DNA from: Escherichia phage Zumzum
Sequence record: PP925847.1
Reading direction: 5' to 3' (one strand)
Length of the DNA: 44,738 nt
A model generated the notes under the pieces. It did not search any database. It worked only from the letters and a program-made list of their open reading frames with translations, and was not told the origin of the DNA. Every line of letters begins with the position of its first letter. Positions within the stretch are counted from its first letter, which is position 1. The translations under genes and the position numbers were made by a program. Shown here one piece after another: positions 30,301 to 30,819 of this stretch.

Positions 30301-30819
30301 ATGTTTGAACAAATCGTAAACTTGATTACTCGCGGCGTAGTAGCGCTGGAAACCATCGCTAAGCATTATGAAACCGTTGGCGCTGCCGTTGGCAAGCAGG
30401 AAGATAAAAAGCCATCTAAGGCGAAAAAAGAAGTCGTCGAAGACGACGACGATGGCGCTGAAGACGAAGCACCGGCGAAAACCAAAAAAGCACCGGCTAA
30501 AGGTAAGGCCAAAAAAGAAGTCGTAGAAGATGACGACGATGAAGAAGCCGAAGACGAAAAACCGGCGAAGGGTAAAAAAGCTCCGGCGAAAGGCAAAGGG
30601 AAGAAAGATGCCGATCCGCTGGCAGAGATGCGCGACGAGATCAAGCAGTACGCCGCGATTATCGCCGGTGGCGATGACGACGATGCTAACGACGAATTTG
30701 ACGACCTGCTGGAAGCGTTCGAGATCAAATCAATCGCCAAGCTGGAAGACGACGACGTCGAAGACTTCCACAAAGATTTAAAAGAAATCGTCGAGACTTA
30801 TTTCGAACTGGAAGACTAA
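30301..30819 (+). CDS. mixed-charge low-complexity repeat protein (172 aa), first early gene
   Basis: Tandem repeats KKEVVEDDDD...PAKxKKAPAKGK; acidic C-terminal region. Confidence 0.7.
   Translation: MFEQIVNLITRGVVALETIAKHYETVGAAVGKQEDKKPSKAKKEVVEDDDDGAEDEAPAKTKKAPAKGKAKKEVVEDDDDEEAEDEKPAKGKKAPAKGKGKKDADPLAEMRDEIKQYAAIIAGGDDDDANDEFDDLLEAFEIKSIAKLEDDDVEDFHKDLKEIVETYFELED

Follow-up and report, generated by a model that had tools for sequence, protein, structure and literature searches.

The gene at position 30301 of Escherichia phage Zumzum (PP925847.1; the whole 44,738-nt stretch that was analyzed is referred to as the window), here designated gene X, encodes a member of a real, conserved and uncharacterized phage protein family whose tandem repeats are its least informative part. 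The repeats are not the functional core of X; the conserved and selected parts are its two ends, an N-terminal amphipathic helix and a strongly acidic C-terminal domain, which are separated by a mixed-charge linker predicted to be disordered. Our best explanation, to which we assign a probability of roughly 0.4, is that X is a non-enzymatic protein serving as an electrostatic adaptor in a T7-like replication/recombination module. The features on which the argument draws are listed in Table 1.

Table 1. Gene X, its predicted domains, and the flanking signals and replication genes in the window
Feature	Position	Strand	Description
AAA_25 helicase-primase	27430..29694	-	Pfam; divergent from X
HTH regulator, 109 aa	29705..30034	-	Pfam HTH_23 / Sigma70_r4_2; divergent from X
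Distal sigma70-like promoter	30108..30136	+	TTGAAA-17-AATAAT, 10/12 plus extended -10 TG
Intrinsic-terminator hairpin	30166..30192	+	Followed by T9; dG -16.2 kcal/mol, z -2.8
Proximal sigma70-like promoter (putative)	30212..30240	+	TTGACT-17-TAATAT, 9/12, consensus scan; about 60 nt before ATG
Gene X	30301..30819	+	172-aa ORF, ATG start; phrog_3127 member (HK578_044 / SO-1 gp46-like)
N-terminal amphipathic helix, aa 2-26	30304..30378	+	AF2 helix, pLDDT about 63; muH about 0.5
Disordered mixed-charge linker, aa 27-102	30379..30606	+	pLDDT 40-46, without secondary structure
Two in-frame tandem units, 87 nt + 90 nt	30421..30597	+	Encode AKKEVVEDDDD..PAK.KKAPAKGK; copy-number-variable part of linker
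Acidic three-helix-bundle C-domain, aa 103-172	30607..30816	+	pLDDT 88-93; net charge -21
Terminator-like GC hairpin + T-run	30958..30977	+	After the 41-aa ORF; consensus scan
DUF2800/PD-(D/E)XK nuclease	31428..32858	+	Pfam; downstream in X operon
Enc34/gp2.5-type SSB	33163..33966	+	Pfam; downstream in X operon
Family A DNA polymerase (PolA)	34193..36484	+	Pfam; downstream in X operon

The open reading frame translated exactly as quoted in the original prediction, which had described mixed-charge tandem repeats and an acidic C-terminus, and both Tandem Repeats Finder and the calculated charges agreed with that description (whole protein, net charge -23, pI 4.4; C-terminal 70 residues, 27 D/E or 39%, net -21, pI about 4.05). 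A Shine-Dalgarno sequence, GGAG, is located at 30290-30293. Several records place the start of X further upstream and obtain proteins of about 207-247 aa that read through the promoter/terminator region (231-239 aa in Opt212, StarDew and EE09; further examples are L003 at 2708-3451, L008 at 1321-2019, P0008, P0060, P0067, P0072 and P0077); these starts were rejected as mis-annotations because the conserved N-terminus, MFEQ or MLDK, begins at the ATG used here. An antisense ORF at 30366-30773 (135 aa, Ser-rich) was judged to be a by-product of the GAA/GAC-rich repeat codons and not a gene.

X had been described as the first gene after the strongest early promoter. The distal promoter is the best sigma70-like site in the window, where only two sites reach at least 10/12, and it does lie upstream of X; however, the intrinsic terminator intervenes, and it is the weaker proximal promoter that fronts the ATG. 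Plus-strand promoters are annotated in the HK578 record at positions equivalent to this proximal site. As judged from the sequence, the segment 30108-30200 would produce a ~55-nt transcript or act as an attenuator upstream of X. No Rfam family matched the RNA upstream of X or the repeat region, and a 36-aa ORF is annotated in EE09 within the equivalent stretch. Downstream of X, a 41-aa ORF (30824-30949) is found in only some Dhillonviruses (e.g., JLBYU37 and slur05, not Envy or HK578), and the terminator-like hairpin behind it may possibly form a partial stop that raises expression of X relative to that of the downstream genes.

Published proteomics data bear on the expression of X. In whole-cell analysis of EE09-infected cells at 25 min, no more than four phage proteins were detected; CDS56 and CDS61 were among them, and CDS56 does not appear in the virion-lysate table (PMC10673088). 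CDS56 is the X orthologue, annotated from a spurious upstream start, and CDS61 corresponds in position and size to the SSB. Because CDS56 was detected in cells and not in the virion table, X is taken to be abundant and non-structural; its expression is probably abundant and also early, a timing that we infer. The statement that X is promoter-proximal and extremely acidic was borne out.

The phrog_3127 HMM matched X over its full length (E 2.4e-53; X residues 1-172 aligned to profile positions 1-178 of 178), establishing membership in that family. For the region 29000-33000 of the window there were 155 matching phage records, nearly all of them Escherichia/Shigella phages of the genus Dhillonvirus (HK578/SO-1-like siphoviruses), with JLBYU37 as the closest (95%). 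X is carried by 154 Dhillonvirus records and 485 Guernseyvirinae-type records, and the family spans Dhillonvirus, Jerseyvirus and Kagunavirus in about 640 genomes. An exhaustive profile search of 1.84e9 proteins with the C-domain yielded only ~40 clusters in which the domain was always C-terminal in a small protein; the combination of N-helix, charged disordered linker and C-terminal acidic domain was present in 40/40 clusters, and the C-domain was duplicated in three.

Pfam, NCBIfam and PDB sequence searches with X returned nothing significant (Pfam DUF6669 scored 13 bits, E 0.076, below its gathering cut-off of 27), and APSE-2 P53 gave no more than a borderline match (E 0.03). Neither by sequence nor by fold did our searches find a relative of X with a known function or a likeness to known replisome accessory factors. 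Relatives in phrog_3127 bear the GenBank label '13.88 kDa late protein' (Salmonella phage MB78, UniProt Q9T1Z8), and the searchable literature yielded no experimental basis for the word 'late'; the phrog_3127 and MB78 entries belong to the same family as X but are catalogue entries without an assigned function. Two characterized Dhillonvirus proteins were distinguished from X: Ksap1, the KpAvs2 trigger, is a 74-aa protein encoded between methyltransferase and phosphatase genes, and the anti-Tmn of phage SMS22 is ORF35, which contains beta-sheet and is missing from some Dhillonviruses.

An AlphaFold2 model of X was built on a 59-sequence alignment. The structure and disorder prediction that had been proposed as a check gave a divided answer, with residues 23-101, which cover the whole repeat region, predicted to be disordered (pLDDT 40-46) and the C-domain confidently predicted to fold into three helices (106-123, 127-139 and 153-168). 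The same structural prediction was obtained for a natural 115-aa variant as for the 172-aa protein, and a fold-match search with the C-domain returned nothing informative. Columns that are invariant throughout the family occur only in the N-helix (R11, V13, A15, E17 and A20), in which hydrophobic residues occupy heptad a/d/e-like positions; this seam suggests helix-helix packing, and the N-helix is a candidate oligomerization or docking helix. X does not correspond to a TonB-like anchored spacer, that is, an N-terminal transmembrane anchor followed by an EP/KP spacer: the N-helix contains the conserved R11 and E17, to which the window protein adds K21/H22, and its mean hydrophobicity is only about 0.3, and EP/KP runs are found in distant homologues only.

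Tandem Repeats Finder reported a period of 90 nt with 2.0 copies at 30417-30593 (82% matches, score 236), a repeat far above chance expectation, with units corresponding to aa 41-69 (30421-30507) and aa 70-99 (30508-30597). Within Dhillonviruses the first ~30 and last ~70 residues of X are 95-100% identical and the centre varies widely in length among the 120 homologues listed, with 0, 1, 2 or 3 units in orthologues that are otherwise 95-100% identical. HK578 has one unit, the window two, and SM_A2 three that are 97% identical to one another as DNA; by Dhillonvirus protein cluster, 9 have no unit, 42 have one and 47 have two. Natural orthologues of 115 and 122 aa are almost without units and retain 6-11 basic residues, and in distant homologues (about 40% identity) the units are replaced by PEPEPE...KPKAKAKAK, KRKPRKAK or TRGKK-type stretches. 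By hand count the two units of the window differ by 9 synonymous and 3 non-synonymous changes and 1 codon indel; since the copies differ mostly at synonymous sites, it is the peptide that has been conserved and not the DNA. The view of the repeats as the functional element thus found no support, in light of the predicted disorder, the 0-3 units in near-identical orthologues, the unrelated stretches in distant homologues and a linker that is neutral, not basic. Given the disorder of the linker, its variable copy number and the selection on both ends of the protein, the repeats are best described as expansions of a charge-balanced tether.

Charge balance is the property that the linker maintains. 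Its central 72 residues contain 21 K/R and 22 D/E in alternating acidic and basic blocks, for a net charge of -1 (-4 when wider boundaries are taken), and across the family linkers of 32-104 aa have a net charge of -1.2 ± 3.2 and are near-neutral at any length. This bears on whether X is a DNA-associated chaperone or coating factor, in which lysine-rich blocks would bind DNA and the acidic blocks and acidic domain would modulate that binding or exclude host proteins. Lysine/alanine/proline-rich DNA-binding tails occur in the histone H1 C-terminal domain, in mycobacterial HupB/Hlp and in AlgP, and the basic blocks of X (PAKTKKAPAKGK / PAKGKKAPAKGK) with their K/A/P-rich tandem motifs (PAKTKKAPAKGKAKK and PAKGKKAPAKGKGKK; PAK(T/G)KKAPAKGK) resemble the PAKKA/SPKK-type repeats of those tails. 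To that extent the originally noted likeness to histone H1 was justified. A basic patch also directly precedes the C-domain in most family members, with RGRP/RGRKP AT-hook-like cores in 8 proteins, and X is highly abundant. Unlike the H1, HupB and AlgP tails, however, which are strongly basic, each basic block of X is paired with an acidic one, which leaves the region neutral or slightly acidic on balance and the protein as a whole net negative; the blocks are dispensable in the natural 115- and 122-aa variants, the sequence of the basic motif is not conserved across the family, and no folded DNA-binding domain was found in X. We therefore regard a DNA-coating role as very doubtful.

The position of X in the genome connects it with replication. 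Synteny was scored in 45 IMG/VR loci (L009-L053) and in L007, each counted where the relevant flank was present. In every sampled locus with that flank, 2.6-3.8 kb separate X from the helicase-primase gene upstream of it, which is either divergent or co-directional, and X lies 0.55-1.8 kb upstream of the DUF2800 nuclease gene, which is followed by the SSB and PolA genes; the order X-nuclease-SSB-PolA is kept in Jerseyvirus and Kagunavirus as well. Dhillonviruses transcribe the helicase-primase and the HTH regulator divergently from X. The helicase-primase of Jersey- and Kagunaviruses runs in the same direction as X, and directly upstream of X there lie a promoter (11/12 in Kagunavirus) and a small repressor gene that is divergently oriented. 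As a promoter directly precedes X in all three clades, X is the promoter-proximal first gene of a nuclease-SSB-polymerase operon. Only helix-turn-helix models of the HTH_23 / Sigma70_r4_2 type matched the 109-aa minus-strand protein, for which reason it probably regulates the divergent promoter region; the labels 'DNA recombination nuclease inhibitor gamma', 'transposase' and 'resolvase' belong to entries for this protein, not for X, and look wrong.

At about 29000-30500 of the window the cumulative GC skew reaches its minimum, GC content is at its lowest (0.49-0.51 versus about 0.55 elsewhere) and gene orientation switches, making this region a candidate replication origin, with a skew that is confounded by transcription direction. 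Each repeat unit contains a 7-bp-stem hairpin, GTCGTCG/CGACGAC (30433-30452 and 30520-30537, minus strand), and the minus-strand hairpins, being followed by a T-rich run that corresponds to Lys AAA codons, score as terminator-like against antisense transcription. Together these observations raise the question of whether the repeats act in cis, as origin iterons or another element inside the linker-coding region, in the manner of lambda O and ori-lambda. The location of X at the strand switch and skew minimum (about 29-30 kb), in the least GC-rich stretch and beside strong promoters, speaks for such an element, as does a hairpin in each unit. The hairpins, however, are probably a codon by-product, trivial because GTC (Val) and GAC (Asp) are reverse complements of each other, and the skew carries the confounding just described. 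Moreover, genome-sized contigs as well as isolated phages contain anything between 0 and 3 units, units are missing from other clades that retain X, and the window copies have diverged mainly at synonymous positions. The linker-coding region thus holds no conserved iteron array of the lambda O type, and we consider a cis-acting role for the repeats highly improbable.

The neighbours of X have been encountered in work on phage defence. Bas14_0045, the orthologue of the nuclease gene, acts as the trigger of type IX retrons through msDNA cleavage according to a 2026 preprint, and the nuclease gene appears dispensable because escapers carried truncations. Dhillonvirus SSB mutations confer escape from Retron-Eco8 and polymerase mutations confer escape from Borvo (Stokar-Avihail et al. 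preprint); the SSB and polymerase genes of the window correspond to these respective escape genes. Screens for escapers repeatedly struck three Dhillonvirus genes, those for the SSB (Retron-Eco8), the polymerase (Borvo) and the DUF2800 nuclease (retron type IX); X is not reported from these screens, which counts against the adaptor reading. A Kagunavirus transcriptome likewise said nothing about X at the level of single genes.

In sequence divergence, the folded parts of X keep pace with the replication enzymes. Between clades, identity was 38-67% for the N-helix and 38-62% for the C-domain, compared with 26-69% for the helicase-primase, 45-66% for the nuclease and 37-75% for the SSB. In 23 Dhillonvirus genes the N-helix had a pN/pS of 0.075 and the C-domain one of 0.053, values that place both ends of the protein under purifying selection.

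These rates, together with the synteny, bear on the most serious alternative, namely that X is a host-directed acidic decoy. The C-domain would sit where an abundant host protein (such as RecBCD, HU, H-NS or RNA polymerase) binds DNA, with the N-helix oligomerizing X and the linker providing reach, by analogy with T7 gp5.9, T7 gp5.5 or lambda Gam. Those three proteins are encoded among replication/recombination genes, and T7 in particular embeds its host-directed acidic inhibitors gp5.5 and gp5.9 there, which means that synteny does not prove a replisome role for X. The extreme acidity of the C-domain, the promoter-proximal and probably early and abundant expression, and the location close before the genes for a RecB/AdnA-like nuclease and an annealase-like SSB, reminiscent of gam-bet-exo, are all consistent with a decoy; furthermore, no other Gam-like protein or RecBCD inhibitor was identifiable, the GenBank 'Gam' label being the one on the HTH protein. 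Against this, X showed no sequence or structural likeness to Ocr, ArdA, Gam, gp5.9, Arn or other mimics, DNA mimics are not known to have a conserved docking helix and a long disordered linker, and X is a core gene that evolves at the rate of replication enzymes and not a variable accessory gene. We consider a decoy a serious competitor of the adaptor, only somewhat less likely.

An anti-restriction role was a particular version of this idea. According to the BASEL study, Dhillonviruses are comparatively sensitive to type I/II R-M relative to Nonag- and Seuratviruses; the resistance to type I R-M that characterizes an Ocr-bearing phage is thus not apparent from this literature, a point that argues against an Ocr-like role specifically. 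The original reasoning, that a first-expressed gene is likely to serve host takeover or anti-restriction, lost ground on these results: in three genera X belongs with strict synteny to the core of the replication module, the evolution of its folded parts is as slow as that of replication enzymes, no similarity to known DNA mimics was found, and Dhillonviruses are described in BASEL as comparatively sensitive to type I/II R-M. The suggestion of a DNA mimic survived in one respect, in that X does have a confidently folded domain of very high negative charge; it failed in another, since this domain does not resemble any characterized mimic, though the C-domain may still act electrostatically in a mimic-like way. 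The accompanying caveat that function is not determinable from sequence stands.

An electrostatic adaptor within the replisome accounts for these features better than a fast-evolving counter-defence gene does, because the tripartite architecture is invariant with occasional duplication of the C-domain, because the linker varies in length and not in net charge, and because X combines strict synteny and an enzyme-like evolutionary rate with abundance alongside the SSB. As an adaptor, X would be a stoichiometric accessory of the helicase-primase, DUF2800 nuclease, gp2.5-type SSB and PolA module. Its N-terminal amphipathic helix would oligomerize X or dock it on a partner, and the disordered charge-balanced tether would be free to vary in length, with basic patches that may touch DNA or acidic protein tails. 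The acidic three-helix bundle would bind a basic, probably nucleic-acid-binding, surface of a replisome protein, for which the polymerase, the SSB cleft and the helicase-primase are candidates. X would then couple parts of the replisome as an electrostatic adaptor or hub, much as the acidic C-terminal tails of gp4 and gp2.5 couple to T7 DNA polymerase. In this scheme we infer the oligomerization of X, the identity of its partner and its effect on replication. A bolder version, which we hold to be quite unlikely, makes X a previously unrecognized replisome organizer, oligomeric and multivalent, that presents acidic 'DNA-like' three-helix domains on a tunable charged linker; in that role it could either lend processivity or coupling to a thioredoxin-independent T7-like polymerase or scaffold a phage replication focus or condensate, and linker length (0-3 units) would then be a fast-evolving tuning knob.

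The family merits attention on several grounds. About 640 sequenced phages (Dhillonvirus, Jerseyvirus, Kagunavirus and relatives) carry X as a core gene with high expression, and many of these phages serve phage-therapy and defence-system research; X is still labelled 'hypothetical' or given a baseless 'late protein' name. Retron and Borvo defences are known to be triggered by, or escaped through, its neighbours, the nuclease, SSB and polymerase, and understanding the function of X, the first and probably most abundant product of the operon, would complete the picture of the replication module. Should X be an electrostatic adaptor, it would provide a simple model for a disordered, length-variable tether in a minimal replisome; should it be a host-directed decoy, it would represent a new inhibitor family. 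In either case, the natural series of 0-3 units is a ready-made experiment on linker length.

On present evidence X is neither a known system nor a new kind of system, and its relation to characterized proteins is best expressed by points of likeness and difference. Like T7 Ocr (gp0.3), gp5.9 and gp5.5, lambda Gam and T4 Arn, X is small, very acidic, all-helical and promoter-proximal, and gp5.5, gp5.9 and Gam likewise are encoded beside replication and exonuclease genes. Unlike these inhibitors, X has a tripartite helix-linker-domain organization, is a slowly evolving core protein and has no detectable relationship to them; nor, by the BASEL description, are Dhillonviruses notably R-M resistant.

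A parallel in layout is found in Chi-like phages, in which BSPM4_0004 (about 130-140 aa) occupies the slot of X, divergent from the primase and upstream of DUF2800 nuclease, SSB and PolA genes. It too has an N-helix, a low-complexity GGAK/TKGK linker and a helical C-domain with an acidic tail, whereas its C-domain, unlike that of X, is not strongly acidic. Profile-profile comparison gave no support for homology between the two (hhalign probability 2.9%), and because a different protein fills the slot, the module does not strictly need the X family. The Salmonella phage BSPM4 protein itself (L057, 3691-4110) comprises 140 aa with a GGAKGGAKGGAG/TKGK low-complexity linker, and the 'RecT protein' label that some UniRef entries give to the protein in this slot looks unfounded at about 130 aa.

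A further comparison is with T7 gp2.5 (SSB) and gp4 (helicase-primase), whose acidic C-terminal tails dock on basic patches of T7 DNA polymerase. The role of the gp2.5 tail is also quoted in PMC5686142. X is neither a gp2.5- nor an Enc34-type SSB, proteins defined by an OB fold with an acidic tail, for it is all-helical and disordered and the SSB is encoded by a separate gene. It also has no enzymatic domain, and it differs from the tails of gp2.5 and gp4 in being a separate protein with a folded three-helix acidic domain and a conserved N-helix of its own. Like those tails, however, X belongs to a T7-like module with a gp2.5-type SSB, PolA and helicase-primase, and it possesses a tethered acidic element that could couple replisome proteins electrostatically.
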